Source: an uncultured Lachnospiraceae bacterium
GTDB lineage: Bacteria; Bacillota; Clostridia; Lachnospirales; Lachnospiraceae
Direction of reading: 5' to 3'
DNA: 64,000 nucleotides
NCBI GenBank assembly: GCA_947626475.1
Contig: CANQSK010000002.1
Span: forward strand, 5,115 to 69,114
The notes under the pieces were generated by a model. That model saw only the letters and a list, made by a program, of their open reading frames with translations. It was not told the origin of the DNA and ran no database searches. Position 1 is the stretch's first letter; each line of letters begins with the position of its first letter. Of the stretch, positions 1 through 17,318 are shown one piece after another. A program made the translations under genes and the position numbers.

Positions 1-1
1 T

Positions 2-1144
2 CCTGCCGGCAGGGCTCTGATGATAGAACTTCTTGTAATCATCCGGATAGTTGTCCACACTCTCCGCGGTTTTCTGCCAGTCGAAAAACTCGTCAATCCC
101 GATATTGGTTCCCCGGTACGCCTCCAGCTTGTCGAAGACCTCCTCCAGGTGGTCCTCCGTATAAAAAATAGCCGGCTCATTCATATCGTTCCAGAAGCCT
201 TCAATCCCCTGATCCAGCAAGACGTGGTACCACCCGCCGAACCATTCTCTGGCCTTCGGATTCAGCACATCCGGGAAATGCACTCTGCCGGGCCAGACAC
301 CGCACACGAAATCGCTTCCGTCTTCCCGCTTGCAGAAATAGCCCTTCTCCACGCCCTCCTCATAGACCGGATAGCCCTCTTCCACCTTCACTCCGGCGTC
401 GATGATCGGCACCAGGTGAATGTGTTCTTTCCTCATCTTCCTGACAAACTCCGCAAAATCAGGGAACCGCCGGGAATCCACAGTAAAATCCTTGTACCGC
501 TCCATATAGTCAATGTCCATGCAGACACTGTCCAGAGGCACATGGTCCTCCCTGTGCCTGCGCACTACTTCCTCTATATCCTCCGCGCTTTTATACCCCC
601 ACCGGCTCTGACAGTACCCAAAGGCCCACCGGGGAGGAATATAGCTTCTGCCGATCATGCGGCGAAACTCGCGGACAATCTCCCGCACGGAATCATTTTC
701 CAGTATATACAGTACAAAGCCGTCCTCTTCCACCTTCACAGACAGCCTTCTCCGGTCTGTATATCCAAGATCAAACTCTACCTTCTGGGCCGCGTCCACG
801 AACACTCCGAACCTCCGGTGTCCGTCCACCACAAAAAAATTGTGGGCGCCATAAAGGGAATGGCGGCTTTCCAGATGGCGGGATCCGTCTATGCAGCTTG
901 AAACATACTTCCAGCCTCTTTTATTAATCCCGCGGACATTCTCGCCTAAACCGTAAACCGCGTCCCCGTCTTCCAGCGGACAGGAAAACTCTCTGCCGTC
1001 CTCAGACATGGAAAAATAGGGAATCCCATCTAAACCGCCTGCCGCGCTCTCCTGCTCATGCCGGTCATACGTACCCGTACAGGGAACCGTCTCTGTCACG
1101 GCCTCCGTCTCAAACGGACAGCCAAAACGATATTTTTGAATCAT
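2..1144 (-). CDS. GH31 alpha-glucosidase, 3' end truncated by the window edge (absent from the ORF track)
   Basis: Manual minus-strand translation from ATG at 1144 (SD GAGGTG upstream): MIQKYRFGCPFET...IPPRWAFGYCQSRWGY...MDIDYMERYKDFT...GIEGFWNDMNEPAIF. WNDMNEP is the GH31 nucleophile motif. The frame stays open to position 2. Confidence 0.93.
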   Translation of the reverse strand, partial: MIQKYRFGCPFETEAVTETVPCTGTYDRHEQESAAGGLDGIPYFSMSEDGREFSCPLEDGDAVYGLGENVRGINKRGWKYVSSCIDGSRHLESRHSLYGAHNFFVVDGHRRFGVFVDAAQKVEFDLGYTDRRRLSVKVEEDGFVLYILENDSVREIVREFRRMIGRSYIPPRWAFGYCQSRWGYKSAEDIEEVVRRHREDHVPLDSVCMDIDYMERYKDFTVDSRRFPDFAEFVRKMRKEHIHLVPIIDAGVKVEEGYPVYEEGVEKGYFCKREDGSDFVCGVWPGRVHFPDVLNPKAREWFGGWYHVLLDQGIEGFWNDMNEPAIFYTEDHLEEVFDKLEAYRGTNIGIDEFFDWQKTAESVDNYPDDYKKFYHQSPAGR

Positions 1145-1168
1145 ACCCCACCTCAAAATCTCTTTTGC

Positions 1169-1756
1169 CTATACACAAACTGCCTGTCTCCGGCATTGTC
1201 CCCTCGCCGGCTCTGTCTGACCGTTCTCTCCGAATACCAGCCTCAAAAGCAGCCGGTACTCTTCATAAAACGGATACTCTTCAAATTCTCCAAAAGACTC
1301 GAACACGCTTCTGTAATACCAGGCATGCATATTCTTGTCCTTCTGACGGAACTTGTTCCAAATCCCGTCCCCCATAACCAGGTAATCAGCCGCGGTACTC
1401 CGCAGATTGCTTAATTTATCGCCAAAGGCAATCATGCGTTCCTCTCGTCCCGCGCTTCTCAGCCGTTCCACTGTAGCCTGCTTCCTCTGCTGCCAGGTTC
1501 TGGTCTTATCCTCGCTCTCTGCCTGAACCAAATCCGCCACACGGCCGCCGAAGGTTTCCGCAAGCTCGCGGTAAGTGACCCCGGCGTCCTCGATCACATC
1601 ATGGAGATAAGCCGCCGCGATCACCTCCGGCTCCTCCGTCATAACTGCCACAATCATAGCCACTTCCTTGGGATGTACGATATACGGCATATTGCTTCCC
1701 TTCCGGAGCGCCCCTTCATGGACCCTCGTGGCAAACTCTGCGGCTTTCTGAATCAT
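1169..1756 (-). CDS. Stand-alone HD-domain hydrolase, RelA/SpoT hydrolase (Mesh1/small alarmone hydrolase)-like
   Basis: H..RKG...PYIVHP.EVA, AAYLHDVIED and GDKLSN motifs of the SpoT-type HD domain; 195 aa with no synthetase domain. Confidence 0.8.
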   Translation of the reverse strand: MIQKAAEFATRVHEGALRKGSNMPYIVHPKEVAMIVAVMTEEPEVIAAAYLHDVIEDAGVTYRELAETFGGRVADLVQAESEDKTRTWQQRKQATVERLRSAGREERMIAFGDKLSNLRSTAADYLVMGDGIWNKFRQKDKNMHAWYYRSVFESFGEFEEYPFYEEYRLLLRLVFGENGQTEPARGQCRRQAVCV

Positions 1757-1858
1757 AAGCTGTCCTCTCTTTCCATAGGCAAGTGAGTCTACCGTCTCCC
1801 TTCCTGGGAGAATTACAAGCTTATCATAACATAACTTATAGAAATTTAGAAGATAAAC

Positions 1859-1887
1859 TTGTAAGAAATCTGATTTTCTGATATGCT
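1859..1887 (+). promoter_or_regulatory. Putative sigma-A promoter for the 1929..2612 gene
   Basis: TTGTAA (1859-1864), 17-bp spacer, TATGCT (1882-1887). Confidence 0.45.
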
Positions 1888-1928
1888 ATTGGATACAGTC
1901 AATATGATTGATACCTGGAGGAATTATT

Positions 1929-2612
1929 ATGGAACAACGAACATATCATCGCCGTACGGCTCCAAGAAGGAGAAGCCTTCTCAGCTATGAGTGGGTAAGG
2001 ATTCTTCTTTTTTATATTTTGCCCTTTGTGGTCATCAATTTGCTGATTTTCTTTCTGGTGACCTGCAGGCCGTCCTACGAGATTGACTTAGACGGCACTG
2101 ACGACTACCGGACTACCGACGTCACCTTCACGATCACATCCCACATGCCCCTTAAGACCGTCACCATCCGTCTGGACGACGAGCCGCTGGATCTGGTCAA
2201 GGTCGGAAGAAAGTCCTATCGCTCCACTGTCACTCACAACGGCATTCTGGAAGTTCATATGGAGAATTTCAACGGCGTGGAGGTCACCGGCTATGAGGTC
2301 ATCGATATTCTTGACAATCAGCTTCCCGACGTAGTCAATTATACCATGGACAATGGAATTCTTACCCTTATGTTGAGCGACTCCCAGTCGGGCATTGATT
2401 ACGAAGGTCTCACGGCCGTCAAAAGCGACGGGCAGGTGATAGCGCCCATATCCATTGATAAGAATACGGGCACCGTCACTTTTGAGATGGACCCGGCAGG
2501 CCTTATTGTCAATGTGCGCGATATGTCCGGCAATGAGTACCAGCCTTCCTTCTCCGTCAACTACGTCGAAGAAGGCGCGGAGCAGTCCGATACCCAGCTG
2601 ATCATTCAGTAG
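1929..2612 (+). CDS. Membrane-anchored hypothetical protein (one N-terminal TM helix, acidic beta-rich ectodomain)
   Basis: GGAGG SD before ATG 1929, preferred to ORF-track start 1908. Basic N-terminus, then hydrophobic ILLFYILPFVVINLLIFFLV, then alternating beta-strand pattern. Confidence 0.75.
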   Translation: MEQRTYHRRTAPRRRSLLSYEWVRILLFYILPFVVINLLIFFLVTCRPSYEIDLDGTDDYRTTDVTFTITSHMPLKTVTIRLDDEPLDLVKVGRKSYRSTVTHNGILEVHMENFNGVEVTGYEVIDILDNQLPDVVNYTMDNGILTLMLSDSQSGIDYEGLTAVKSDGQVIAPISIDKNTGTVTFEMDPAGLIVNVRDMSGNEYQPSFSVNYVEEGAEQSDTQLIIQ

Positions 2613-5600
2613 GTCTGTTTCTGCCGGTACCTGAAAGCAGACGCCGGAGCAGCAGGCAAAGAATCGGCAGCAAAAGCAGGCCCAGGCCCAGAACAGTTTT
2701 TGTTCTGCGGCTTAGATTCCGTATCCAGTTCCACAGGCCGCCCGGCTGTTTGGGCGGTCTTTTCTTTTGTTGCCGTCCGGCGTTAGAGTCTGTCCGCACT
2801 TTGACCAGAGACCCATCCGCATTCTGTCCTTCCTCCGCTTCATTCTCAGTCAGACGGTAAACCGCCTGATACGCCATATCCGGCGGTCCGGTCTCTTCCT
2901 CACGGCTCTCATAAACCACCTTCACATCCGCCACATATTTCTCCCCTGAGACGACAGCCTGCCGGAAAAGGATCCCTTCCTCATCCCGCCAGGGTTCCCC
3001 TGACCAGGAGGAGTTTTTTATCCGGTAATAGTCCGGATTTACTCCGATCAGCTCCAGAAGCTCTTCCTCATATCCTTCCATAGGCTGTTCCTCTTTCACG
3101 ATCGCCACCCGATCACCCAGGTAAAAGCTTCCGGCGTCATATTCCTGGACCGTAACGGGAAACTGAAATCCCGGGATCCACTGCCAGTTGTCATAGCTTA
3201 TATCCGCAGCCTCAAAAATCCGCTCTCTGCCTCCATCCGAGACCGTGATGGTTTCCGGAACCTTCGCCGCCTGCTCCACCTGACTGTACTGAATCGTTTT
3301 TTTCCGGACTTCCGGCTGCCTGAGGTTCTCCTCCGCAATCAGCTGACAGGATACCATCTGATATTCCCGCCCCTGCCAGATATAATGGTCCGGGGGAATA
3401 TCCGCTTCCTCCGGGCTGCCGGAAATCGGATCATAAGTAACCGTAATTTCCTTATCCCCCGTCTCCGAAACTGTCTCCGCTCTGACCGTAAGCGCCGGCA
3501 GGGCAAGCAGACATACCAGGATAAAGATCCATCCCGATTTCTTACCGGACCGCTTCAGAAGCACCATCCCCGCTCCCGCAAGAATCATGATTCCAAGGAA
3601 AATACCCGGCCCGGGCGTCTGATCTCCGGTATGGGGAATCCGCGGCCTGCCGCTGCCCGGCACATCTCCTTTTCCTGTGGCCTGAGGCTGATAACTGGCC
3701 CAGGCTCTTCCCGGCCGTCTCGGTGTGCCGGGCGCCTCAGGTTTTTTGGGTTCTTTGGGCTCTTTGGGGCTCCCCGGGCCGGGTCTCCTGCCCGGACGTC
3801 CCGGCACCTGAGGCTTATGTTCCTCCGGCAGTCTCTCGTCCTCCATAACCACCTGCTGAATACTTCCGTCCTCCTCCACTGTGAAAGTGATATCACCGGC
3901 CGTGCCGTAACCTTCCGGCGGCAGCAACTCCCGCAGCACATACCGGCGGCCCGGCAGCAGCTCCGCCTCAATCTCATGGGGAGTCTCACCGGAAATCCAT
4001 TCTTCTATCATGCGCCCCCATTCGTCCAGAATCTGCATCTTTGCCCCGGGAATCTCTTTCTCTCCCGTTATTTCTGTCTTGCTGACCCGCACAGTCCGTG
4101 TCCGGTCGTACGCGCTTATGGCCTTAAGAAGACCCTGACCGTCCAGCAGAAACGCAAACCGCCGTTCCTCTTTTCTGCCGCCGTCACTGTAAATGGTTGT
4201 CTCTTCCAGAACATAGGGGCGATTTCTCAAAAGAATTTCCTTCTCAGAATCCCTGGCACCCACAGTCAGTTCCGGAAGATTCTCCGACGGATACCAGGAA
4301 GCCGCGACAGCGCCGCCCGGATCCTTCAGCTGAAGAAGTACCTGTTCCGGCATACGGTCCTCTGCCTGATACCTGCCGTTTTCCAGCCGGACCCGCCTGG
4401 TAACGCGGCCCGTTATCTGCCGGCTTCCGTCGCTGTAAACCGTTCTCTCTGTGAAGGTATAAATTTCATTGTCCCGGATTCCGTCTGCTTCCGTCAGCAG
4501 ACGGCCCTGCCCGGAGGAGACCCATTCCGCTGCCATACGGCCGTTTTCGTCGGTTACCTCCATCAGGCACTTAACTGCATAACGGCCCTTCAGCGCAAAC
4601 CATCCGGGATGATGTACCGTGACGGCTGTCATGCGGCTGCTGAAGGAACTGATTCTCCGGCCGTCCTCCGACAGAGTAAACGCAACAGGCTCCATCAGCA
4701 GATATCCGGCCGGGGTCTGAAGCTCCGTCAAAAGATACGTCCGGCCTGCCGTCAGACCTTCCAGCACATGATCCGGCTCCTCTCCGGAAGAGACCCACTG
4801 CGCGATCGGATTCTCCCTGTCATAGAGATACCGTCCCATTTCATCCATGCCGGACACCGGATACACGGCAAGAGACGCCCCTTCTACAAAGGCTTCCTTC
4901 GGAAAGGCCTGTTTTCGGAGGACAATTCTGGTTTTTTCATCTGCGATCCTGGTTCGGTATACGGCGGATTCATCCCAGCGGTAGGACTGTCCCTGTTTAT
5001 TTGGTTCAAACTCAAAAGACCGAATTTCCGGGTTCACCTCATAACCGTCCGGTGGCGTCAGTTCCCGCAGGCGGTAGCTGTAGGGAATCACGCTTCCGTC
5101 GGCCTGTATCTCTCCTGCCGGGAGACCGGTCAGCTCCGCCGTTCCGTTCAGATCGCTGAAGGTTTTCGTCAGCACAGGATTTACAAAATCAGGCGGCAGG
5201 TACGCAGTGATCTCAAATACCGCTCCCGTCAGGGGCCGACCGCCGGTGTCCGTCTTCCGCACCTCCACCCGGCCCTCCGCTGGTCTGTCCGAAATCCTCA
5301 CAATACGAACCTCATCCCCCAGGCGGTACCGGATCAACCTGGGCGGAAACGTAGTATAATAATCAGGACTCTTCTGCTCCACCAGCCAGTAATCTCCTTC
5401 CGGCAGTCTCCGAAGGGCATGGGGTTTCAAGTCTCCTACCTGATATCCTTCGGGAATGCTGCCGCGGATCCTGTCCAGCTCCGTGTAGACCCCGTCTCCG
5501 CCGCTGATCCACCAGGCCGCCAGATGCGCTTTATCCTGAATCAGCTCTCCATTATCCCCGGCGCGGTAAAGAGCCAGCTCGGAGCCGGACAACTCCTTTT

Positions 5601-8600
5601 CGCTCCCATTCTTATCCGCCGCAAAGGTTTTGGAGATCAAAAGCGAATGTTCTTCATTGAGAACCCGGTACCGCCAGATATCCGCCGTATCTCCCACCTG
5701 CAAAAGAACCGGCTCCGCCTTCCCGAATCCGGCGGCGGCCCTGGTTTCCACCAGCATATAGGTTCCTCCCGCCGGAAGATAATCAAACCGGCGCATACCG
5801 TCCAGTGTCAGATAGGAGCAGGCCCTCTCATTGACCCTGGGAAGCTTCCGATAATCAAACTGATATTCATAGACAAAATCTCGCCCCTGCCGGTTATCCT
5901 TTTGCCCATAGACGGTAACACGGATGTCTACTCCTTCATCCGTCCGGAACAGAAGCTGCGCCGTCGTGGGAAACCTGGAAGCCTCTCCTCCGGCCGCCGT
6001 ACTGTCAATCGCGGTTTTGGACACCGCTCTGGCCCTGTAGATTTTCCCCTTATAAGCCCAGGACAAAAAGCTTCCCCCTGTTCCGTAAGTCCGGTACATT
6101 TCCTCAAAGGAGTCAATAAAACCGGCATACTCCTTCCCGTCGCTGGAAACAAACCGGTCTATCTTTTGTGTCTTGTCATACTCCGGCCGGCCCTCTGCGG
6201 TTATCCGGGCGGGATAGAGGGTAAATTCCGCCCCATTCAGCGGTATCTCGCTTCCGTCCTCCTGCACAGTATATTTTTCCACCTCCACTTTCGTATGGTC
6301 ATTATACAGCGTATACTCCTGAACCTGTCCGGCAGGCTTCACCTCCAGTTCCAGCGGCTTGGCCGGCACAAAGCCCTCCGGCCTTCTCTCCTCCTCCATA
6401 ATGTATTCACCCGCCGGTATCCCTTCCAGATAAAGCGGCGTCCGGCCGGTCGTCCACCGGTTCAGCGGCTCCGCGTTTTTCTTCTGCAGGTAAGTACCGG
6501 ACGGATGATTCTTCAGATCAGAGGTATAGATCCTCTTGGCCTCATAAAGAGCCAGTACAGCTCCCGGCAGCTGGGTGTAAGAAAAGGCGCCTTTGCCTTC
6601 CGTAACCATTCCGATCTTTTTTGGATAGCTCCGTTTGTCCTGCTGTCCTCGTCTGTCCGACCGTTCCCGCTTGTCCGGCTGTCCGGCCAAACGCACAGAG
6701 TATACCGGCCACCCGCTCCCGTCTGTCTTGTTCACTTCAATTTTCGTAGCGGCGTCTGTCATTGCCACTCTCTGCAGGCGGGAATCTTCTTCCACGATCA
6801 CTCCTGCGGGCAGCCCTTTTTGATAGCCCGGAGGAGCCTTAAGCTCTTCCATAATATATTCCCCCACAGGCACCCGCCTCAGAATATCCGGCTGGCCACC
6901 GGTCATGCTGTCAGAAAACGGGTCATTGGGAGAGACCTCTCCGGTCACCCACACATTCTCCAGAATATAGCTCTCCCCCATGCGGTGACGGACCGGTTTC
7001 CGAGAATCCATCTTATGAGAATCCAGCTTATAGGAATCACTGACATACGCCTCCAGACTGTCTGCCTCCTTCTTACGAATCCAGGCGCCGCTCCGGTCAT
7101 AGAGCTGTGTCTCTTTTTCGTATCTTTCCGGGCTTCTCCGGTAATACACCGGCAGTCCCCATTCATCATAAACCGGTTTTATCTCCTTTGCAAAACGTCC
7201 GCTGGTACCGGCCAGTACCGGATGTCCATGGAGATTCTGTCCCATCCGGTTCCCCTTCATCGTAAAAAGCTTATGGCTTTCCTCCCCGGCCTCAGATTTC
7301 CAGGTGCCGGTCAGGTACTCGCTGCCGCCTTCACTCTCCCCCGCGGTGGCGATCCTGCAGGTAATTTTCTTATCTCTGGCGATAATCCGCCCTTCCTCGT
7401 CCCGGTACGTCTTTACAGGCCACACCAAAACCTTCGTCCCGCTGTCCTTTTCTTCCGTCAGGGCATAGGCCATGCCTGTATAAGGATCCACCAGGCTGTC
7501 CCTGACTCCTTCCTCATCCAGGTGATACAGCCGCACACCGCGGCTCATAACTACCCGGCCGTCCGCCCTGCGTTCAGGTCTGGCGAATGGGCCTTCCAAA
7601 ACCCTGTCCTTCGGCAGATACACAATCTCCGTAAAATCATTTCCTTCCAGTTCCAGCACAGGCCGGCTTCCGCGAAAGGCAAAAATCGAATGGGTCTTAT
7701 CCCTCTCCAGCTGATGGATAGACATCCTCTCATGGTTCCGCCCGAAACCGTAGGTCACTTTTTCACCATCTATGGACTCTGTCCGAAACAGCTGAAGCTT
7801 CCCAAGATCATAGTACAGAATATCTGTGTCTCCTCTCTGAACCGTCTCTCCGCTCCAGCAGTTCTCCCCGTTTTTTAAAACCTGGACAAACTCGGTCCGG
7901 GAACCGGCATAGCCCTCCCGCACGTACATGCGGCTGACGCCGCCGTTGGCAAGGCGTTCCACTACAACTCCTTCATACGCCTCATCCTGGGTATCCCCGG
8001 ACGGCGTCACCAAAAGTCCCTCAAACAGCGCCATCACTCCTCCGGCCACATAGGGACCATCGCCGGCGTCTGTCTCCAGTTCCCTGGTTACATATCCGTA
8101 ACCGGCAAACAGATTTCCGTCGTATACAATTTCCACCTGCTCTCCGGCCTTTTTCCTGCCCAGAAGATATTCCAGCGTCCCTTTTTTCCATCCGTATCCC
8201 ATATATCTGCCGTTCCGGTACGCATACTCCATGCCGGGATCTCCGCCGATCCGCGCAAGGCTGCCGTCGATCCTTTCGCCCACCCGGTAGGTGATCGCCG
8301 CCGGCCGGTCTCCTTCCCCGGGCACGGACGCTTCCTTTCTTTTCTCTATCTGAAGCCGGGTCGGTTCATTTTCCACATAGATTCTGGCCGCGGACAACGC
8401 CTCATCCTGCCCTTTCTTTTTATAAACGGCAGCCGTCACCCGGCTGTCTCTGTCACCTTTCCGATAGTAAGTCACTTCATCGCTGTATACCTCCACGGCT
8501 ACGGGACGGCATCTGACATAACCGGATGGGGCTTTTACCTCCGCCAGCACATAGACTCCGGCCGAAAGAGGCTGCGGTGTATAAAGATACCCTGTATTCT

Positions 8601-11600
8601 GCCGTCCTGCCTCCGGCGGCAGACCCTCGGAGTCCCCTTCCATGATCCCGTCTCTGGCCGTAGTAAAGGAGGCAGTCATACCGGTCTGAACTCCATAGAC
8701 ATCCGTCTGAACTACCCGGTCTTTCTCCCGGCACACGGGCGTACCGGCCGGTACCACTCCGGCATACCGCCTGTCCGCCGCCGGTCCTCCGCGGGATACG
8801 GGATGAATATCCTCCGCCCTCATGCTTTCCAGAAATTCCCGGCTTCCGGATATGACTGTATCTTCCTCGTAAAAGACTGCCCTGCCGGTACCTCCGGGCG
8901 ACGAATCGCAGTCCGTCCGGTATATGTTAAATATTGCCTCGTCATGGAGCAGATTCTCTCCGGTCTCAGAATCCATTTTCTCAATCCGGATCCTGGTTTT
9001 ATAAAGCCGGTTCCGGAAACGGACCCGGGCCGCCTCCGTGCCGGGTTCCCCCTCCATGCTCCTGTAAACCAGGGCCGGACTGTAATGCCCGTCCCAGGCG
9101 GCGGTCATTCCTCTTACGCCGGTCCTGCCCTCCACTGTGCAGGCCTCCTCCGACACCGAGCTGTACCTGTAAAACTGTCCGACACGCTCATGGTTCTTTC
9201 GCCCGCCGGCCAGATAGTAGGTCACCGGCTCCGTCCGCCGGTCATCCGAATCATTATAATAGTTCAGTTCCGGCTTCCAGCGGCTCTGAGTCAGGGCGAA
9301 CCTGTCCTCCGGGCCTGCCGGCCCGGCTCCGTTCCTAAGCCTGTGGATACCGGCGCCATATTTATAAATCTCAAAATCGCCGCTGTGATTGTGGGCCGGA
9401 ATCCTGTCTTCCTCCGCGCAGAAACGGATCTGGTACTGTTCTGTCATTTCTTCCGGCGTCATATCAGCCCGGTAAATATACCGGCTGCTCAGAGTCTCCC
9501 CGCCGTCCTCAGAGGTTTCATATACGGAAGGAATCACGATTTCCCTGGGGCGGTCGATTCTGTAATGCCGGTTGGGATAATCCTGCAGCTTCGCGTACCT
9601 GGGCTGCTGCTCCGCCGCCACATAGGTTCCGTAAGGAAGGCTGCGGGATATTTCGTAATAACAGGTTTCTGCCTCCCGATCTGCGCTCAGCGTTGTCCCG
9701 TCCTCGTCCTTTCCTCCTCCTTCCTCCGAATCCCAGCTTACGGCATAAATCTCGTCCAGATCATAGGCAAAAAACGGCTTCAGATAATTGCCGGCTTTCT
9801 GAAGCGCCTGATACAGGGCTTTGTCGTACAGCTGGTCTCCGTAGGCCGCGGCTTCCCCATCAGAAGAACCGTCCTGCAAAGCCGCAAGCTTTGCGGCTTC
9901 CTCTTCCAGATACCAGTCAATGGCAAACTGCCTTACCATGTCGGACGCCCTGGCGTTTTCCTCTGCCTCTGGACTCCGGTTCGCCTCATTGCCCAGGGGC
10001 CGGTGGGACGAATAACCGGGCGCCGCGTCGTCCCACCGATCCCGGTTGGCAACCTCAATGGCCTGAAAGAATTTTTCATAATTATGGTTTTCCAGCACCG
10101 CCGTGTAGTCCAGCGGGGCCTCTTCCTGATTCTCATCGTACAGGGCGGCATTGGCCTCTATGGCTTTCCCTCTGTCCTTACTGAGAATCTCTTCGCTTCT
10201 GGGGACTTTGGTAAAAATACGCGGGACCAGCCCCGGATACGCCCGGTTGGCGGAAAGCACGTCGATCTCTCTTCCCCGTCTGTCCAGCCACACTATCGTC
10301 CCTTCCCTGTCCCGATACAGCCGCTCCAGATTGCTCTTCAGATACACCTTAAACCGGAAATTATTCTGCTTTCCCAGCCCGTGATCCTGTGTATCCTTTA
10401 TCACCTTCACCGGCTGCCGGATGATGCGCTCCTCAACCATAAAGGGCGTCTCCCTGGTCCCTTTTCCCGGCGTTCCCGCCCCATCCTGCCCAGGCAGGAT
10501 CTGCCCCGGATAGGTCAATTCAACAACTCCCACCGTCTCCCTGCCGGCCGAAGCAAAAGCGCTGGCCCCAACGCCTTTTATCTGCGTCAGATAATCGCTG
10601 TAGAACATGGACTCGCCGTCTTTCACAAAGACTTCATAAGGCGCCTCGGCGCGGAACGTCTCTGTCACAGGCCCGGCCGTCCGGCTCCAGTCAATTCGGT
10701 TGTCCGCGTGAATCCGGTAAGACTGATCCTCGGGATCATACTCGGCAGGCAGCGGTTCCAGCTCATAGTCGCTGGTGATCTCTTCCTTCTCCTCATAAAT
10801 ATATTCCTTCCGGTACACGGGAATCGGATTGCCCTGACCGTCCAGCCGGTTCTCCCCTTCCGCATACTGCTCGTAGAGTATTTCATAAACAGGACGAAGG
10901 GCTTTCTCCAGAGGCTGCGGAAAGGCTACCGGCCCCTCGGCCCGCCTGGTCTCTGCAACTGTAATATAATTACCCTGTATCGTATACTCCGATGGCCGGT
11001 ACGCCGCAAACATATGCCGCCGCTCGTCTTCCTCTGTCTGAACCGGCAGCCTTACGTACAGAATACCGGAACGCTCCTCATAGACGGCTGTGTCCGGCCG
11101 CCTGGTCTGATCATGAAACAGCACGGCGCTGAAACCGCCGTCCTCCAAAACGACGCTGTGAACCGCGCCGCTGTCCCAGAAGGAATGAACATCAAACCAG
11201 TCCAGGATTTCCAGAATCAGCTCCCGGTTCGTACTTCCCTGCAGTTTTATCACAGTCCAGGGCGCTTCATCTCCCGTATCGCTGTCCAGCATATGATAAC
11301 CCATCTGTTCCAGCATGGCGTTGGCTTCCTGCTTCACATACTCCTCATCCGGGGATTCCTCGTCCTCCCATTCCTTTGAAGCGTTTGCCGGACTCGCGAT
11401 TCTGCCGGGATAATAATTCAGCCTCCTGATCAGCGGATAAGTCCCCGGCACCGGCTTTGACGTGTCGTAAAGCAGATTTCCCTCCGAATCTCTCCTGGGA
11501 ATATAGCTTCCGGTTTCATCCAGGCGGTATTCTCCCGGCAGAGCCTTCTCATATTCCCCGGTTTCCGCCAGACGAGTTCCTGTTACAACTCCGCCGGCCA

Positions 11601-14040
11601 CCGCTCCTTTGGTCTCCTTCATACGGGAGCGGAAAAACCGGCTTCCCTCAGGAAAACCGCTGACCAGAATATCAAAGCCTTCCGCCGTATTCTGACTGGT
11701 TACGTCAAACTCCAGCCAGGAACCGTCGTGCATATCCACCGGATGAGTCATGGCCGTGGTCACGTCCGCCCGGCCCGCAGCCGCCCATGCGGCGCCAGGC
11801 AGTTTTTCATCCGATAATTTTTCACCTGACTGTTCTTTTTCTGACAGTCTTCCGCCGTCCTCCGGCGCCTCCTCCCAAGGCAGTACCGCCCGCTCATACC
11901 CTTCCGACCGGCCAATCTCTCTGACCAGATAGCGCCCGGCTATCAGCGGGCGGCCGGTCAGATTCAGAACTGTGCTTTCTTCCGTATAAGCCAGAAAAGA
12001 GGCATCTCCGTTTTTATCGGTCGTTCCGATGGCCGTCAAATCTCCCGCCCGATAGACCGCTCCCGTCCTGCCGTCCGGATGAAGGATATCTTCCGCCGCG
12101 TACAGACCATATACGGCCCCCTCCAGTGTCGCGTCGCCCTGCGTATCTCCGTAGCTGTCATAGGCGCCGCTCTCACCTTCAAGCAGCTGGCTGTCTCTTT
12201 TATTTATGTGGATTTCTCCTTCAGTCCTGTGATTTTCTACACAAAATGTATAGGACACTGTCCCGGCGTCACCGGATGGAGCCAGGAGCGGCAGCGTATC
12301 CGGCTCCGGAGGCGGCAGACTCACCCCGCCTCCTCTCTCTCTGTTCCCGGAACGTTCTTCCGCCCCGCCGAAAAAGGACTGACCGGAGCCGATGCTTTCG
12401 TCTGTGATCACAGGTTTATCTATGATTTCCCATCCTCCCCCGGCTTCGGAGGAGGACACTCTCACTACAGGAATAGGTTTATCATCATTATGCTGTCCGT
12501 GGCGTACATAGCCGCAGCGGGCCTGGATTTCCTGAAACGTATAATCATAGCGGAGCCGGATAAACTGCCTGTAAATCTCCTCCCGTTCCTCCAGCATCTG
12601 TCTTTGCCCTTCTCCGGGAATCTCCGAATGAAAATCTGTCTGCTCGCTGCATGCTTCCTTACATGCTTCCCACAGGGCTTTCAGCCGCTCGTTTTCCTTC
12701 CGGACCGCCTCAATCTCTTCACTGTTGTCCTGGCCGGTCTCCGGATCCGACCAGTAATCCGGTTCCGGCAGATAGTCCGGCTCCGGATGGCCGCCGCAAT
12801 AGGTTCTGGCATATTCATAGCGCTTCTCATCCCTGTGGGAAATATGACCGTCCTCATCTGTGGAGGCCTCCCCGCAGATTTTAAAATGATTCCAGACCGC
12901 CGGCTTAGGCGTCATGGCGGCGGAACTGAGAGCCGCTCCGAGCTGACCCTCCTCAAAAGCCTCCAGCACGCGGAAGATTGCTCCTTTAAGCGGATTGCCC
13001 GTCTCAGCGCAGGATTTATCCAGATCTACCAGATAATGGGCGAGAAACTTCTCCCTGTGCTCGTACCGCTTAAACTCCGGCCGGCCGTCCCCCGGAACAG
13101 AGGGCTGCCCCGACATGGACAGCTGAAGATACACCTTCGGAATATACGGGCCGGCGGATATCATCCCCTGGGTGCGGTTCTGAGCCTCCTGCGGAATATA
13201 AATGTTCATGGTTTCCGTGTTTCTGGACAGAGTCATATACTGAACCGGCAGAGCCGCCCACGCCAGGATTCCTTCCTGCCCTTCTCCCGCGTACGTGAAG
13301 ATCAGTTTTCCGCCGCTGACACGCCGCGTCCAGCCCCGGGACTCTCCTTCAAACTGCCAGTCCAGCGCGGCCATAAAGGGAACCGCCCCAATATCCAGCT
13401 CCGCCGTCCAGATTCCGTTTTCCAGCTTCATCGGAACCGGCCGGTTCCGGGCCCCGGTGCGGGTGGAGCGGATCCAGTCCGGAAGGTTTTCTATGCCGCC
13501 GCTCTCGTCCTCCACATAGGCCTTCAGATCCAGAAAGCGTTTTTCCGTTCCGGGAATATGCCTGTCCACCACCCGGGCAAGATCTCCGGCGCTTTCCCAG
13601 CCTTCATTCATGATCGCCCACACGGCTGTCTGAGCGGCCGCGTAAGTAGCGTTGTCCGCGCCGATATTTCCCTCGTACTCAAACCAGGTGCAGATACAGG
13701 CCAGCTTCTCATAATCATCCCGGCTTCCCACATAGGGAATCGATTCATCCTCAACGGAGGTCCTTACGGCATCCGCCACTACAGTGCTGCCCATATGCTT
13801 TCCCGGCGAAAGGCAGAAGGTCATCTGATACCCGTCGGTCCAGCGGTACATGTAATTTCTCTTTTTCCCAAAAAGTTCTTCACTTCCGCCGCTCCAGATG
13901 TTAGTCCCGCGGAACGCGGCGGCGCGGCCGACCAGCCAGCCCCCGGCCAAAAAAGCCGCCGCGGTCAGAACAAAACCAAACACGGCAAGACAACCGAGCC
14001 AAAACCGCCTGTTTCTTTTCCGAATCCGTCTGTTTTCCAT
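2602..14040 (-). CDS. Giant (3812 aa) surface adhesin: signal peptide, thioester-like domain, about 10-12 SpaA/CnaB-type domains, Pro-rich stalk, IPHTG sorting signal, then a second signal peptide, ectodomain and TM anchor
   Basis: Basic/hydrophobic N-terminus. Repeated K.D..G..L.GA.F.(L/I)Y and Y.L.E..(A/T)P.GY motifs (e.g. VRKTDTGGRPLTGAVFEI, YRLRELTPPDGY). KEPKEPKKPE stalk; IPHTGD at aa 3468. SD AAGAGG before ATG 14040. Confidence 0.88.
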   Translation of the reverse strand: MENRRIRKRNRRFWLGCLAVFGFVLTAAAFLAGGWLVGRAAAFRGTNIWSGGSEELFGKKRNYMYRWTDGYQMTFCLSPGKHMGSTVVADAVRTSVEDESIPYVGSRDDYEKLACICTWFEYEGNIGADNATYAAAQTAVWAIMNEGWESAGDLARVVDRHIPGTEKRFLDLKAYVEDESGGIENLPDWIRSTRTGARNRPVPMKLENGIWTAELDIGAVPFMAALDWQFEGESRGWTRRVSGGKLIFTYAGEGQEGILAWAALPVQYMTLSRNTETMNIYIPQEAQNRTQGMISAGPYIPKVYLQLSMSGQPSVPGDGRPEFKRYEHREKFLAHYLVDLDKSCAETGNPLKGAIFRVLEAFEEGQLGAALSSAAMTPKPAVWNHFKICGEASTDEDGHISHRDEKRYEYARTYCGGHPEPDYLPEPDYWSDPETGQDNSEEIEAVRKENERLKALWEACKEACSEQTDFHSEIPGEGQRQMLEEREEIYRQFIRLRYDYTFQEIQARCGYVRHGQHNDDKPIPVVRVSSSEAGGGWEIIDKPVITDESIGSGQSFFGGAEERSGNRERGGGVSLPPPEPDTLPLLAPSGDAGTVSYTFCVENHRTEGEIHINKRDSQLLEGESGAYDSYGDTQGDATLEGAVYGLYAAEDILHPDGRTGAVYRAGDLTAIGTTDKNGDASFLAYTEESTVLNLTGRPLIAGRYLVREIGRSEGYERAVLPWEEAPEDGGRLSEKEQSGEKLSDEKLPGAAWAAAGRADVTTAMTHPVDMHDGSWLEFDVTSQNTAEGFDILVSGFPEGSRFFRSRMKETKGAVAGGVVTGTRLAETGEYEKALPGEYRLDETGSYIPRRDSEGNLLYDTSKPVPGTYPLIRRLNYYPGRIASPANASKEWEDEESPDEEYVKQEANAMLEQMGYHMLDSDTGDEAPWTVIKLQGSTNRELILEILDWFDVHSFWDSGAVHSVVLEDGGFSAVLFHDQTRRPDTAVYEERSGILYVRLPVQTEEDERRHMFAAYRPSEYTIQGNYITVAETRRAEGPVAFPQPLEKALRPVYEILYEQYAEGENRLDGQGNPIPVYRKEYIYEEKEEITSDYELEPLPAEYDPEDQSYRIHADNRIDWSRTAGPVTETFRAEAPYEVFVKDGESMFYSDYLTQIKGVGASAFASAGRETVGVVELTYPGQILPGQDGAGTPGKGTRETPFMVEERIIRQPVKVIKDTQDHGLGKQNNFRFKVYLKSNLERLYRDREGTIVWLDRRGREIDVLSANRAYPGLVPRIFTKVPRSEEILSKDRGKAIEANAALYDENQEEAPLDYTAVLENHNYEKFFQAIEVANRDRWDDAAPGYSSHRPLGNEANRSPEAEENARASDMVRQFAIDWYLEEEAAKLAALQDGSSDGEAAAYGDQLYDKALYQALQKAGNYLKPFFAYDLDEIYAVSWDSEEGGGKDEDGTTLSADREAETCYYEISRSLPYGTYVAAEQQPRYAKLQDYPNRHYRIDRPREIVIPSVYETSEDGGETLSSRYIYRADMTPEEMTEQYQIRFCAEEDRIPAHNHSGDFEIYKYGAGIHRLRNGAGPAGPEDRFALTQSRWKPELNYYNDSDDRRTEPVTYYLAGGRKNHERVGQFYRYSSVSEEACTVEGRTGVRGMTAAWDGHYSPALVYRSMEGEPGTEAARVRFRNRLYKTRIRIEKMDSETGENLLHDEAIFNIYRTDCDSSPGGTGRAVFYEEDTVISGSREFLESMRAEDIHPVSRGGPAADRRYAGVVPAGTPVCREKDRVVQTDVYGVQTGMTASFTTARDGIMEGDSEGLPPEAGRQNTGYLYTPQPLSAGVYVLAEVKAPSGYVRCRPVAVEVYSDEVTYYRKGDRDSRVTAAVYKKKGQDEALSAARIYVENEPTRLQIEKRKEASVPGEGDRPAAITYRVGERIDGSLARIGGDPGMEYAYRNGRYMGYGWKKGTLEYLLGRKKAGEQVEIVYDGNLFAGYGYVTRELETDAGDGPYVAGGVMALFEGLLVTPSGDTQDEAYEGVVVERLANGGVSRMYVREGYAGSRTEFVQVLKNGENCWSGETVQRGDTDILYYDLGKLQLFRTESIDGEKVTYGFGRNHERMSIHQLERDKTHSIFAFRGSRPVLELEGNDFTEIVYLPKDRVLEGPFARPERRADGRVVMSRGVRLYHLDEEGVRDSLVDPYTGMAYALTEEKDSGTKVLVWPVKTYRDEEGRIIARDKKITCRIATAGESEGGSEYLTGTWKSEAGEESHKLFTMKGNRMGQNLHGHPVLAGTSGRFAKEIKPVYDEWGLPVYYRRSPERYEKETQLYDRSGAWIRKKEADSLEAYVSDSYKLDSHKMDSRKPVRHRMGESYILENVWVTGEVSPNDPFSDSMTGGQPDILRRVPVGEYIMEELKAPPGYQKGLPAGVIVEEDSRLQRVAMTDAATKIEVNKTDGSGWPVYSVRLAGQPDKRERSDRRGQQDKRSYPKKIGMVTEGKGAFSYTQLPGAVLALYEAKRIYTSDLKNHPSGTYLQKKNAEPLNRWTTGRTPLYLEGIPAGEYIMEEERRPEGFVPAKPLELEVKPAGQVQEYTLYNDHTKVEVEKYTVQEDGSEIPLNGAEFTLYPARITAEGRPEYDKTQKIDRFVSSDGKEYAGFIDSFEEMYRTYGTGGSFLSWAYKGKIYRARAVSKTAIDSTAAGGEASRFPTTAQLLFRTDEGVDIRVTVYGQKDNRQGRDFVYEYQFDYRKLPRVNERACSYLTLDGMRRFDYLPAGGTYMLVETRAAAGFGKAEPVLLQVGDTADIWRYRVLNEEHSLLISKTFAADKNGSEKELSGSELALYRAGDNGELIQDKAHLAAWWISGGDGVYTELDRIRGSIPEGYQVGDLKPHALRRLPEGDYWLVEQKSPDYYTTFPPRLIRYRLGDEVRIVRISDRPAEGRVEVRKTDTGGRPLTGAVFEITAYLPPDFVNPVLTKTFSDLNGTAELTGLPAGEIQADGSVIPYSYRLRELTPPDGYEVNPEIRSFEFEPNKQGQSYRWDESAVYRTRIADEKTRIVLRKQAFPKEAFVEGASLAVYPVSGMDEMGRYLYDRENPIAQWVSSGEEPDHVLEGLTAGRTYLLTELQTPAGYLLMEPVAFTLSEDGRRISSFSSRMTAVTVHHPGWFALKGRYAVKCLMEVTDENGRMAAEWVSSGQGRLLTEADGIRDNEIYTFTERTVYSDGSRQITGRVTRRVRLENGRYQAEDRMPEQVLLQLKDPGGAVAASWYPSENLPELTVGARDSEKEILLRNRPYVLEETTIYSDGGRKEERRFAFLLDGQGLLKAISAYDRTRTVRVSKTEITGEKEIPGAKMQILDEWGRMIEEWISGETPHEIEAELLPGRRYVLRELLPPEGYGTAGDITFTVEEDGSIQQVVMEDERLPEEHKPQVPGRPGRRPGPGSPKEPKEPKKPEAPGTPRRPGRAWASYQPQATGKGDVPGSGRPRIPHTGDQTPGPGIFLGIMILAGAGMVLLKRSGKKSGWIFILVCLLALPALTVRAETVSETGDKEITVTYDPISGSPEEADIPPDHYIWQGREYQMVSCQLIAEENLRQPEVRKKTIQYSQVEQAAKVPETITVSDGGRERIFEAADISYDNWQWIPGFQFPVTVQEYDAGSFYLGDRVAIVKEEQPMEGYEEELLELIGVNPDYYRIKNSSWSGEPWRDEEGILFRQAVVSGEKYVADVKVVYESREEETGPPDMAYQAVYRLTENEAEEGQNADGSLVKVRTDSNAGRQQKKRPPKQPGGLWNWIRNLSRRTKTVLGLGLLLLPILCLLLRRLLSGTGRNRPTE
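2736..2768 (+). terminator. Intrinsic terminator candidate for the 1929..2612 gene, lying inside the antisense adhesin CDS
   Basis: GGCCGCCC-ggctgttt-GGGCGGTC stem followed by TTTTCTTTT. Confidence 0.5.
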
Positions 14041-14051
14041 GAAATACCTCT

Positions 14052-17000
14052 TTACTTTGTCTGTACCGCGCCGTCAACTGTCCATGCGCCGTCCCGATCA
14101 ACCTGATATCCGTCAGGTGTCGTCCGGCTGAAATACATGGCGCCTTTCGTACCGTCCGAATTTTCATTCAGATAATAGCACCTGGTTTTTCCGTCTGAAC
14201 CGGCGACCCAGCGCCAACCGGTAACCATATGGCCGTCCCCGTCAAAATAGAACCAGTCGGCAGGCCTCTGCCCCCTGTCCTCCCTGGCATAAGGATTATA
14301 GATATAGGCCCACTCGTTCCTCCGTCTTCTGCCGTTTGCCTCAAAGGACCAGCGGCCTCTCTCATCCATATTCCAGGTTCCCTTCAGGCTTCCCGCGGGA
14401 ATCCGGGAATCCTCTCCGGGACCGCCGCCCCGCTTTTTGGCGGAGCTGCCTGACCCGCCGGAACCGCTCGCCCCGCCGTAGCCTCCCGACCTGCCGGAAC
14501 CTCCCGACCCGCCGTAGCTCCTTCCACCGCCGAAGCGCCGGGATGTTACCGTCTCATCCACTGTCACAAATCTCAGCGTCACGAGACATTCGGCGGAGAT
14601 TACTCCGTGCGTCTGGTCTTCCGAAGTGGCCGTGACCGTCTCGCTGCGGGTTTCGGAGCCTTCCAGCCGGGTGTAAGGGTTCTCTTTTCGTTTCTGATTG
14701 TCTCTGTATATTACGTTCTGAATCCAGGCCGGGTTATTCTGCCCCTTGGCATCATAGCGAACCTCCACGCGGCATTGGGAAGAAGCATTCCCCTGCGGCG
14801 TCAGCAGAAGGCTGCTTCCTCCGCTTTTGTCCTTCCAGGAAACATTTCTGAGGAAGGGTCTCTCCGGCTGCAGGCCCGCTTCCAGAATCACCGGCCCGGA
14901 ACAGGTGACCGTCTCCCTGGGGGACAGCCGGTAGCCGGTAAGCTTTCTGGTCACCGTCAGTGTGATATGACTCTGATTCAGCTGAAGTCCTTCCACCCGC
15001 CTGGTCGTCCGGTCAATGATCTGAAATGTCACCGTCACCTTGCAGTTGCCGTACACCGGCTGATGATCCGCAGACGTATCCGGATTGGAGACTGCCGTCA
15101 CCACCGCCGGTTTTTCGTAAACCACAGGGCTGATGGCCTCCCGGTACTGGCCGTCCGCCTGCGCCTTCATTTCTCTCGCTATAATAGTTTGGATAAATGA
15201 TCCTGACAGATTGGGAAGAATCCCCGCGTCCTTTTCCGTGTATCCGGACTCTGCGTTCAGAAGAAGCAAATCTCTGTCATCTACGGACCAGAGTACCTTC
15301 CGGTCTGCCGTTTCCCCCGCCGTATTGTGCTCCGCGTGAATCATGACCGGCTGAACCTGAACGGCCGTATCCGGCGCTCCCCCGATATACCTGGCTATCA
15401 GAACGCCGCCTGCGCTGCGCACTTCCGTCACCACAGAAGGATTCTTTCTGTCCCCGCTTCTGGTCTGCACCACGGAAATCCTGGTCTCACCGGGTTCTGT
15501 GGACAGCGTTGTAGTCACCTTCACATACTCCGCATTAATTTCCGTATCCCGCTCCGGCATGGAAAACGTATAGGTCCCTCCTGCCGCGTAGGACATGGGA
15601 ACCCTGCGCCCGGCCCCGTTAATGTAGGTCGGCGCCTTCACGCCGCCCGGCTCCGAGAGGGACGCCGCCATCTGATACCTGTCCTGCCCCCTGTTTTTGG
15701 GCGCCGTCGCCACGGCCACCGCCGTCCCGGGCGCCACCGCGGCCGGATGGTTCTTGTCAATCGCCCGGTAATAAGACTGATTGCCCTCCGGCATGGCCGT
15801 CAAAACCGCCACGTCCGTATCATAAGTTCCGTTTTCGTTTCTTGTGTCAATCCTGGGAACCGACAGCAGGTACCCTCTCACCGGCTGTCCCATGGCATCC
15901 GGGGCAAAATGATCCAGACGGAAGGGGAATCCCTCTCCCATGCCTGCCGCCGTAAACTCATTTCTCAGCTTTTCCGTGACAATACAGCGGATTCCGTCCT
16001 CCAGCTCCTCATAGAAAAATCGGTCCGCGTCTCCAAATTCTGTAGTCCCTGACACCAGCACGCAGGTCTGCTGGCGCCCCAGCCAGTAACCGATATGAGC
16101 GCCCCTGGCAAAGGTATTGTCTTCATCCACATCGGAGCCCATTACTCTCTTCGCCTTGGCCGCCGAATCGGTAAACAGGTAAGACAGATTGTCCCCTGAC
16201 GCGGTACCATAACTGAATGACCGGCTTCCTCTCGTGCCGATAAAAGTGCCCTCCCGGGCGGCCGCCCCCATATTGGTCCTGCCGATATCCCCGGCAAATC
16301 TTGCCACCATCAGGTTGCCGCTTTCATATTTCCCAATGATTCCTCCGGCGGCCCTGCTGCCGCTGCCTCCCACCGTTCCTTCCACATACGCGTTATAGAT
16401 ATTGGTATTCTCCATGATTCCGGCAATTCCGCCGGCATATCCTCTTCCCTGAATCCGGTCCGAATTGCCTGACCAGGTCTTCACCTCATTGTCCGCCAGG
16501 TCGCCGTCCAAAACCGCTCCCGCGATTCCGCCTGTTCCGGACGAAGGCTGGTCGGAACGGACCGCGATTCCGTCCGCCCGGCAGTTTTCAATGGTTACGC
16601 GGCCGCCGTTCCCGTCGGCGGTGCCCGTGATTCCTCCTGCGTTTCCGGACCGCTCTCGCCAGACGCTTCCGGAGAGACTGCGGCCGCCGCTTTCCACAAA
16701 TACATTTCCCGACACGGTCACATTGCGGATCACCGCGTCTCCCAAAACAGTCCCGGCCAGAATGCCGGCGTTGTCCGACCCGCAGATCTCATCCGCCTGA
16801 ATCCGGAGATTTTTCACGGTTCCTCCGTCGATGACTCCAAAAAGCCCCAGCTGGGACAGAGCTGTATCGGACTGAACCATTCTGAGACCCCGGATCGTAT
16901 TTCCTCCGCCGTCAAAGGTTCCGCGAAACGGCGTTTCTACCGGTCCCCCTATCTGGTCCTTTGACGAATACCATCCTACCGGCCTCCAACCCCACGGTCC

Positions 17001-17318
17001 CCGGCTCAGACCGCCCAGATCCAGATCCTGAGTAAGCTCCAGATATTTTCCTTCAAAATCTTCCCCCTGAACTACAGCCTGGGACAGACCCATCAAGTGG
17101 GAAAGGGTGCGGATCTGATAAGGCGCCTCTTCCGTCCCATCTCCCGGAAACTCCATATCTCCGTTCCAGTTCTCCCACAGGTCTTCTCCTGCCGCCTGGC
17201 CGGGCTGCGCTGCCCATGCCGTCAGAACCGCGGCCTGCACAAGCACGGCTCCTGCCAGTGCCCAAAACAGCTGTCCTGCTCGTTTTCTGACTCTTTCCGT
17301 TTTCATCTTCTTTATCAT
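14052..17318 (-). CDS. Secreted GLUG-motif/Ig-like protein with C-terminal cell-wall-binding repeats (1088 aa)
   Basis: Signal peptide ending AWA; GDGTEEAPYQI and GGIAG/GGITG GLUG-like repeats; Gly/Ser linker; WFYFDGDGHMVTGW...YYL...GAM...TPDGYQVD.DGAW cell-wall-binding-type repeats. Confidence 0.85.
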   Translation of the reverse strand: MIKKMKTERVRKRAGQLFWALAGAVLVQAAVLTAWAAQPGQAAGEDLWENWNGDMEFPGDGTEEAPYQIRTLSHLMGLSQAVVQGEDFEGKYLELTQDLDLGGLSRGPWGWRPVGWYSSKDQIGGPVETPFRGTFDGGGNTIRGLRMVQSDTALSQLGLFGVIDGGTVKNLRIQADEICGSDNAGILAGTVLGDAVIRNVTVSGNVFVESGGRSLSGSVWRERSGNAGGITGTADGNGGRVTIENCRADGIAVRSDQPSSGTGGIAGAVLDGDLADNEVKTWSGNSDRIQGRGYAGGIAGIMENTNIYNAYVEGTVGGSGSRAAGGIIGKYESGNLMVARFAGDIGRTNMGAAAREGTFIGTRGSRSFSYGTASGDNLSYLFTDSAAKAKRVMGSDVDEDNTFARGAHIGYWLGRQQTCVLVSGTTEFGDADRFFYEELEDGIRCIVTEKLRNEFTAAGMGEGFPFRLDHFAPDAMGQPVRGYLLSVPRIDTRNENGTYDTDVAVLTAMPEGNQSYYRAIDKNHPAAVAPGTAVAVATAPKNRGQDRYQMAASLSEPGGVKAPTYINGAGRRVPMSYAAGGTYTFSMPERDTEINAEYVKVTTTLSTEPGETRISVVQTRSGDRKNPSVVTEVRSAGGVLIARYIGGAPDTAVQVQPVMIHAEHNTAGETADRKVLWSVDDRDLLLLNAESGYTEKDAGILPNLSGSFIQTIIAREMKAQADGQYREAISPVVYEKPAVVTAVSNPDTSADHQPVYGNCKVTVTFQIIDRTTRRVEGLQLNQSHITLTVTRKLTGYRLSPRETVTCSGPVILEAGLQPERPFLRNVSWKDKSGGSSLLLTPQGNASSQCRVEVRYDAKGQNNPAWIQNVIYRDNQKRKENPYTRLEGSETRSETVTATSEDQTHGVISAECLVTLRFVTVDETVTSRRFGGGRSYGGSGGSGRSGGYGGASGSGGSGSSAKKRGGGPGEDSRIPAGSLKGTWNMDERGRWSFEANGRRRRNEWAYIYNPYAREDRGQRPADWFYFDGDGHMVTGWRWVAGSDGKTRCYYLNENSDGTKGAMYFSRTTPDGYQVDRDGAWTVDGAVQTK

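Follow-up and report, generated by a model that had tools for sequence, protein, structure and literature searches.

A giant adhesin gene of a rabbit-gut Lachnospiraceae bacterium runs in frame past its sorting signal into a normally separate membrane-protein gene

Why does the gene of a giant surface adhesin continue beyond the signal at which its product would be attached to the cell wall? The question arises from a 64,000-nucleotide stretch of the genome of an uncultured rabbit-gut Lachnospiraceae bacterium (assembly GCA_947626475.1, contig CANQSK010000002.1; this whole stretch is called the window in the following). There, a single open reading frame (ORF) on the minus strand, 2602..14040, encodes 3812 amino acids (aa) and is free of stop codons from aa 1 to aa 3812. 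LPXTG-type sorting signals normally lie within the last 30-50 residues of a protein. Here, the sorting signal around the motif IPHTG is found about 340 residues from the C-terminus and not at its extreme end, and behind it come a second signal peptide and another protein, in the following called the partner. Among the major colonisation factors of gut Firmicutes are giant adhesins that depend on sortase; to our knowledge, events at their membrane-proximal end are poorly known. The ORF joins two genes that usually lie side by side, and this fusion is genuine and under selection; that its one chain is cut into an adhesin and the partner we consider reasonably probable.

The fused ORF is a genuine in-frame fusion with a tail under purifying selection. 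Independent Logan contigs from other rabbit-gut runs lie over the junction at 3287-3604 (nine substitutions, no gap), 3463-3693 (identical) and 3580-3812 (identical). A further contig of 1.6 kb from another run, L001, encodes a tail that is 95% identical, with the same frame open through IPHTG to the contig edge. Because these contigs are gap-free and L001 has the same open junction, an assembly artefact can be dismissed; none of these contigs has the stop or frameshift at the junction that a preliminary description of the locus named as what would speak against it. Between the window and L001, the ratio of non-synonymous to synonymous substitution rates (dN/dS) is 0.15 over 371 aligned codons, and the sole length difference is one whole codon. 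At the junction itself only two differences occur, both synonymous. None of the RNA runs searched holds the region.

Searched alone, aa 3492-3812 match a protein family at E = 1e-46 to 1e-52. Together with the dN/dS of 0.15, this makes the open frame more than a product of chance. The preliminary description had proposed to look for homologues that are separate genes downstream of SpaA adhesins and for recurring fusions, and both were found: most homologues are separate genes that directly follow the gene of a giant adhesin with SpaA domains, and fusions in frame have arisen repeatedly. The standalone homologues have 328-409 residues and begin with a signal peptide of their own; beyond it they share the beta-rich core and an acidic linker, then an amphipathic stretch resembling WIRNL, a helix at the C-terminus and a basic tail. 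By exhaustive profile search the family comprises 765 representative clusters, 218 of them below E = 1e-30, while a word-index profile search added almost no further members. No Pfam or NCBIfam model matched the family. An AlphaFold2 model of the partner has a core with a predicted local distance difference test score of ~85-94, for which Foldseek returned no match in PDB (best E 0.12) or among the viral structures of BFVD (best E 0.04).

The fused state is frequent among the relatives. Among 11 loci from species-representative genomes, which are metagenome-assembled genomes of Lachnospiraceae and 'Hungatella' from rabbit and mouse gut, seven are fused as in the window and four are separate. 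We also inspected 153 family proteins, i.e., the best 150 of the 765 plus three earlier matches. Treating the 51 uninformative fragments among them as unknown, ~20 of the ~102 classifiable proteins are fused and ~82 are complete standalone partners. With a degenerate DNA pattern, 27 true loci were recovered from metagenome contigs. The fused forms fall into ~15 groups, a soft figure taken from a rough neighbour-joining tree. In one clade (the window, P0011 and L009) all members are fused at only 42-47% identity, therefore the fused state is old and stable there. Four database proteins (P0001, P0010, which is identical to L007, P0023 and P0136) are fragments of fused genes, called from an internal Met or Val on truncated contigs. 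Such fragments pass as standalone partners in protein databases, and the frequency of fusion is therefore underestimated.

In the closest relatives with the separate arrangement, the partner is the gene directly downstream of a giant that ends with motif, helix, basic tail and stop. In L002, L003 and L004 the giant ends with ...APETGD...KKREEDHG*, and the partner ATG overlaps this stop by 8 nucleotides (nt; ATGGATAA). The partner ATG lies at about the giant's stop in L010 and the partner follows 148 nt downstream of the giant in L005. In L061, from a common human-gut species, the giant ends with ...QPKAGD, a helix and RRKGKKKDDEA*, and the partner frame overlaps this end. The motifs of the separate giants at the position equivalent to IPHTG are APETGD, VPETGD, LVKTGD and QPKAGD. 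The downstream synteny of the relatives is the same as in the window, with a gene for 226-252 residues on the other strand and then HD_4, which identifies the locus as chromosomal and orthologous.

The anatomy given in the preliminary description, from IPHTG to the basic tail at the end of the chain, is present in full at the positions listed in Table 1, as is the in-frame ATG at 3567 with GGGAG 5 nt upstream. A hydrophobic stretch and the positively charged segment KRSGKKSG directly follow IPHTG, as sortase substrates require. IPHTG is the sole xPxTG-type motif with a hydrophobic stretch after it in the whole 3812-aa protein, which has just four hydrophobic windows. The segment aa 3496-3521 in turn displays the n-, h- and c-regions of a Sec/signal peptidase I signal peptide (KRSGKKSG / WIFILVCLLALPAL / TVRA), which is internal to the translated chain unless ATG 3567 serves as a start. 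Between the TVRA/E site and the final membrane helix extends a hydrophilic region of 261 residues. The Pro/Lys/Glu-rich linker at aa 3405-3447 likely represents the wall-spanning segment before the sorting motif, by analogy to LPXTG proteins.

Table 1. Features of the fused adhesin-partner ORF in the window (minus strand; residue numbers refer to the 3812-aa product).
Feature	Position	Strand	Basis or remark
Single ORF: giant adhesin, sorting signal, second signal peptide, partner	2602..14040	-	No stop codon within
Adhesin export signal: hydrophobic aa 13-37 (FWLGCLAVFGFVLTAAAFLAGGWLV) after basic MENRRIRKRNRR	13930..14004	-	Read from sequence
Thioester-domain-like head, aa 40-260; Cys76 in TFCLSPG, Gln137 in AAQTAVWAI	13261..13923	-	Alignment A3, Pfam TED
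Last SpaA (prealbumin-like) stalk domain, aa 3316-3402; one of four SpaA stretches	3835..4095	-	Pfam PF17802
Pro/Lys/Glu-rich low-complexity linker, aa 3405-3447	3700..3828	-	Sequence
IPHTG sortase-type motif, aa 3468-3472, followed by Asp	3625..3639	-	Position kept in relatives
First junction membrane helix GIFLGIMILAGAGMVLL, aa 3479-3495 (17 residues), predicted stop-transfer part of the sorting signal	3556..3606	-	Hydrophobicity
GGGAG, Shine-Dalgarno-like pentamer 5 nt upstream of ATG 3567	3573..3577	-	Within Gly/Ala codons of the helix; putative role
In-frame ATG (Met3492), candidate internal start	3565..3567	-	Sequence
Basic loop KRSGKKSG, aa 3496-3503	3532..3555	-	Shared by the sorting signal (charged tail) and the second signal peptide (n-region)
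Second hydrophobic segment WIFILVCLLALPAL, aa 3504-3517, h-region of the internal signal peptide	3490..3531	-	Aligns with N-terminal signal peptides of standalone homologues
TVRA/E signal-peptidase-I-type site, aa 3518-3522; V at -3, A at -1	3475..3489	-	Predicted cut between nt 3478 and 3477
Partner ectodomain, aa 3522-3767: beta-rich conserved core, then acidic low-complexity linker	2740..3477	-	Alignment A1, AlphaFold2
LLELIGVxxxxYRI motif within the partner core	3019-3060	-	Alignment A1
Amphipathic WNWIRNL segment and C-terminal membrane helix, aa 3768-3798	2647..2739	-	Helix 287-313 of the AlphaFold2 model
Final hydrophobic helix VLGLGLLLLPILCLLL, aa 3783-3798	within 2647..2739	-	Hydrophobicity
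Basic cytoplasmic tail RRLLSGTGRNRPTE and stop codon	2602..2646	-	Sequence

All 28 fused junctions examined follow the same order: an xPxTG-like pentapeptide plus D/E and 15-29 uncharged residues, then a basic loop with a net charge between +3 and +10, another 13-32 residues without charge, a small-residue site and the partner core. The small-residue sites (e.g., RA/E, KA/E, YA/A and FA/A) are the same ones that end the signal peptides of the standalone partners. That every independent fusion retains both signals is the main argument that both are used.

Since the frame has no stop codon, every finished adhesin chain carries the partner. As the fusion is real and recurrent in many gut Clostridia, the one chain is probably cut into two surface proteins, and the sequence suggests the following course. 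The N-terminal signal would export the adhesin of ~3,470 residues until the helix at aa 3479-3495 stops transfer, with KRSGKKSG remaining in the cytoplasm. The second hydrophobic segment would then re-enter the membrane in N-in/C-out orientation and export the partner ectodomain. Signal peptidase I is predicted to cut after VRA, between aa 3521 and 3522, and a sortase encoded elsewhere would cut IPHT/G and link the adhesin to the cell wall, while the last helix would hold the partner in the membrane. The expected products are a wall-linked adhesin, a membrane-anchored partner at a ratio of at least 1:1, and a 50-residue remnant with two helices. Initiation at ATG 3567 might provide extra partner and is not needed in this scheme. 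Both cleavages, by sortase and by signal peptidase I, are our interpretation of the sites in the chain.

Several points weigh against such processing. IPHTG is a non-canonical LPXTG-type pentapeptide, the NCBIfam LPXTG-anchor model gave no match to the adhesin ORF, and the topology of the junction rests on hydrophobicity and the positive-inside rule. No sortase gene was found in the 64-kb window by phmmer with an L029-type sortase or by the TLxTC motif, both of limited sensitivity. The count of fusion events leans on a crude neighbour-joining tree, and many of the database entries are fragments. A Met shortly ahead of the basic loop is retained in the window, L001 and L009, and six of the eight fused loci for which DNA was available have some start codon with a purine-rich stretch upstream, so that internal initiation may also take place. 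Finally, no giant adhesin adjoins the distant family members in L017, L019 and L016, so the partner may have an adhesin-independent role.

Sortase genes do occur near members of this family. In a human-gut species (L029:5492-7321; also L020, L056 and L067), a partner lacking its own C-terminal helix continues without a stop into a Sortase domain (PF04203), and the sequence of this partner-sortase fusion is identical in four independent assemblies. The sortase part has its own Met (MKRCSEIV), with AAAGGAGG kept 12 nt upstream. In one chain, the sortase would be cytoplasmic and thus on the wrong side of the membrane, therefore internal initiation seems necessary there. The L061 locus (1-11428) contains the giant with QPKAGD, the partner, three ORFs without a Pfam match (409, 736 and 650 aa), a Sortase gene and a gene for an NlpC/P60 plus VgrG3-like wall hydrolase. 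The sortase gene is thus located four genes downstream of the partner, beside the NlpC/P60 wall hydrolase. This cluster looks like a surface or conjugation-type module and may reside on a mobile element.

How do other explanations compare with two cuts in one chain? That a missed stop, an indel, a chimeric join or a recent functionless accident produced the long ORF might be suspected because the source is metagenome-derived and the raw-read runs X9 and X10 have zero coverage of the region. But three gap-free independent contigs and L001 share the junction, the low dN/dS and the whole-codon indel point to a maintained frame, and fusions with differing junction sequences exist in eight species-level loci and in ~20 database clusters. 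We regard an artefact or a decaying pseudogene as largely refuted and hardly credible. A second possibility is that the sortase motif is unused. The chain would then be one polytopic membrane protein, or one cut by signal peptidase only, with the adhesin held by its membrane helix. The missing sortase gene in the window fits this idea, as does the drift of the family motifs far from LPXTG (IPHTG, APETG, APATG, TPDTG, LPKMG, LPKLG, GAKTG and TAKTG); moreover, the thioester, isopeptide and ester domain (TIE) adhesin of pLS20 works without sortase (PMC8092201). However, the xPxTG-type pentapeptide plus D/E keeps its position before the helix across otherwise unalignable sequences, which is difficult to account for unless an enzyme recognises it. 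The separate giants of the relatives close with the classical series of motif, helix and basic tail, and sortase genes are found in or adjoining the cluster in L029 and L061. A chain escaping sortase altogether therefore appears distinctly improbable to us.

The preliminary description had posed the locus as either a polyprotein or a nested gene. Both readings are sound in themselves, but the either/or does not hold because the stop-free frame always makes the tail. For the same reason, internal initiation can only add copies of the partner. What remains of the nested gene is the idea that the relevant partner is translated from ATG 3567 (MVLLKRSGKKSGWIFILVCLLALPALTVRA...), secreted and anchored in the membrane, the read-through copy being a tolerated by-product. 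The product of ATG 3567 would have a textbook signal peptide, GGGAG lies 5 nt upstream, the sequence at this ATG is identical in L001, and in L006 and L008 an ATG persists within purine-rich sequence of little structure. The L029 partner-sortase fusion, with AAAGGAGG and an ATG kept before the sortase, seems to need internal initiation for correct topology, hence this gene cluster probably does include ORFs that are fused in frame and yet have an active internal start. On the other hand, the unavoidable read-through product would already supply the partner. In L014, the stretch from the first helix to the second hydrophobic segment contains no ATG, GTG or TTG, and the sister locus L013 departs from it at exactly the junction residue, Met versus Thr. 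Met is likewise absent from at least eight of the 28 fused junctions, although GTG and TTG are invisible where only the protein sequence is available. With L014 lacking a candidate start and these proteins a junction Met, an internal start is not required across the family. The local folding energy at ATG 3567 is -17.9 against a background of -15.4 kcal/mol, i.e., the site has more structure than its surroundings on average; by contrast, in the three closest separate partner genes the true start falls within the least-structured 0-6% of local 60-nt windows. Shine-Dalgarno-like strings at the junctions were discarded as evidence, since Lys/Arg/Gly/Glu codons create such purine-rich strings and they are expected by composition. 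Taken by itself, the nested gene is in our judgement rather unlikely. Dual cleavage is most likely for the window, with internal initiation as a non-exclusive second route.

Two known systems come close to the fusion, and the co-delivery that the preliminary description had called unusual is less so than claimed. In streptococcal Zmp/IgA1 proteases, LPXTG is followed by a helix, a proposed second signal peptide and a second peptidase site, and the atypical position of LPXTG was reported to be needed for correct localisation (PMC3518915). The order of signal peptide, LPXTG-type motif, helix, second hydrophobic segment, second signal-peptidase site and exported domain is common to both. In Zmp, however, the motif lies near the N-terminus after a short segment, whereas ~3,430 adhesin residues precede it here, and the downstream part in our case is a 290-residue membrane-anchored protein that is a separate gene in relatives. 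The adhesin ORF has no homology to M26 zinc metalloproteases, as Pfam gives SpaA only. In SpaCB of Lactococcus lactis pSH74, the tip adhesin SpaC is fused in frame to SpaB, a separate downstream gene in relatives; an internal sortase motif was proposed as the cut point, with cleavage predicted, and the fusion occurs in several strains (PMC5152845). This resembles the window in joining an adhesin to the product of a normally separate downstream gene across an internal sortase motif. But SpaB is a pilin with its own C-terminal LPDTGE that is joined to the pilus, while the partner ends in a plain membrane helix and has neither a sortase motif nor an invariant lysine; furthermore, a full sorting signal and a second signal peptide lie between the two halves here.

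The adhesin part itself resembles TIE proteins, e.g., BaTIE, SfbI and Cpa (PMC6194298, PMC4450167, PMC8092201): it starts with a signal peptide and a putative thioester head that has the conserved Cys and Gln-x-A-[IV]-W, and continues with a long CnaB/SpaA-type stalk and an LPXTG-like signal. It differs in its very divergent head and in being ten times longer than a typical TIE protein, and no described TIE protein runs past its sorting signal. With ordinary C-terminal sorting signals the junction has pentapeptide, hydrophobic stretch and basic tail in common; the differences are its distance from the C-terminus and a basic tail that doubles as the n-region of a signal peptide. A literature search found no description of the adhesin-partner fusion in open-access text and nothing relevant beyond Zmp and SpaCB. 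The topological logic is thus known, and what appears new is the combination of the Zmp and SpaCB ideas in a giant TIE-like adhesin with a new family of membrane proteins, which has arisen in many independent cases.

Here and in ~20 independent database clusters, a full sorting signal precedes what looks like a functioning second signal peptide and another protein. Such genes may be missed or wrongly split by annotation pipelines and by LPXTG predictors that seek C-terminal signals only. Through the fusions, thioester-type adhesins and sortase also become linked to an uncharacterised family that comprises at least 765 clusters, and this provides a testable handle on the function of the family. 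If dual cleavage is true, the locus would be the first case of Zmp-type topology with two sizeable functional products and a simple natural design for the 1:1 co-display of two surface proteins. A more far-reaching idea, which we put forward tentatively and hold to be somewhat unlikely, is that sortase acts as a polyprotein processor, yielding together with signal peptidase I a wall-linked adhesin and a membrane-anchored protein of the new family in a fixed ratio and with the partner at the anchoring site. In that event, the fusions, together with the fusion or adjacency to sortase, would mark the partner as an unrecognised component of adhesin anchoring in gut Clostridia.

The association of adhesin, partner and sortase is the only clue to the role of the partner. 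We would guess that it acts close to the membrane, at the end by which the adhesin is anchored or at its base, because the partner is recurrently coupled genetically to such adhesins and to sortase genes; the term accessory subunit used in the preliminary description is likewise a guess. We also considered a role as a basal-pilin-like acceptor, which was rejected because alignment A1 contains no invariant lysine. An xPxTG motif is absent from the partner C-terminus. In L017 (9314-11331) and L019 (9282-11369), members of the partner family are located between the gene of an HD_4 phosphohydrolase and a cupin gene, and the member in L016 comes after an ORF resembling a transposase. Whatever the context of a family member, GH77 and HD_4 recur among its neighbours.

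Pfam recognised only SpaA domains (PF17802) in the 3812-aa protein, in four stretches and with a whole-protein E of 3.9e-60; the tail gave no match. At the other end, the head residues Cys76, Gln137 and Trp141 are invariant in nine giants (alignment A3), and all fused giants that have an N-terminus possess the common head, in which the Cys, Gln and Trp of FC[LI]xP...QxA[IV]W do not vary. The Pfam model TED matched weakly in seven of the nine giants (best E 9.7e-6), while the window's own E of 0.16 falls below the threshold. A comparison of the head with PDB sequences gave no match, and a sequence search with it returned none. From its motifs, the head appears to belong to a divergent thioester domain class. 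These motifs, TFCLSPG ... AAQTAVWAI, lie at 13612-13824 (-), and the precomputed annotation of an orthologue lists PF28468 (DUF8409) for it.

Three long antisense ORFs inside the adhesin gene, at 3385-7878 (+), 8803-11379 (+) and 12079-14106 (+), with 1497, 858 and 675 aa, are most likely mirror ORFs of codon-biased coding DNA of ~56% G+C and not genes. Upstream of the adhesin gene, an ORF of 1088 aa with weak matches to choline-binding repeats (14052-17318, -) ends 11 nt before the adhesin ATG and is preceded by a gene for a DUF6273 protein (17331-18434, -). Both may belong to one surface-protein operon with the adhesin. On the downstream side, an ORF of 234 aa with a TTG start and no Pfam match (1908-2612, +) runs towards the adhesin gene and shares the last 11 bases with it. 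As homologues of 226-252 aa are found at the equivalent position in L010, L012 and L015, this ORF probably represents a true gene.

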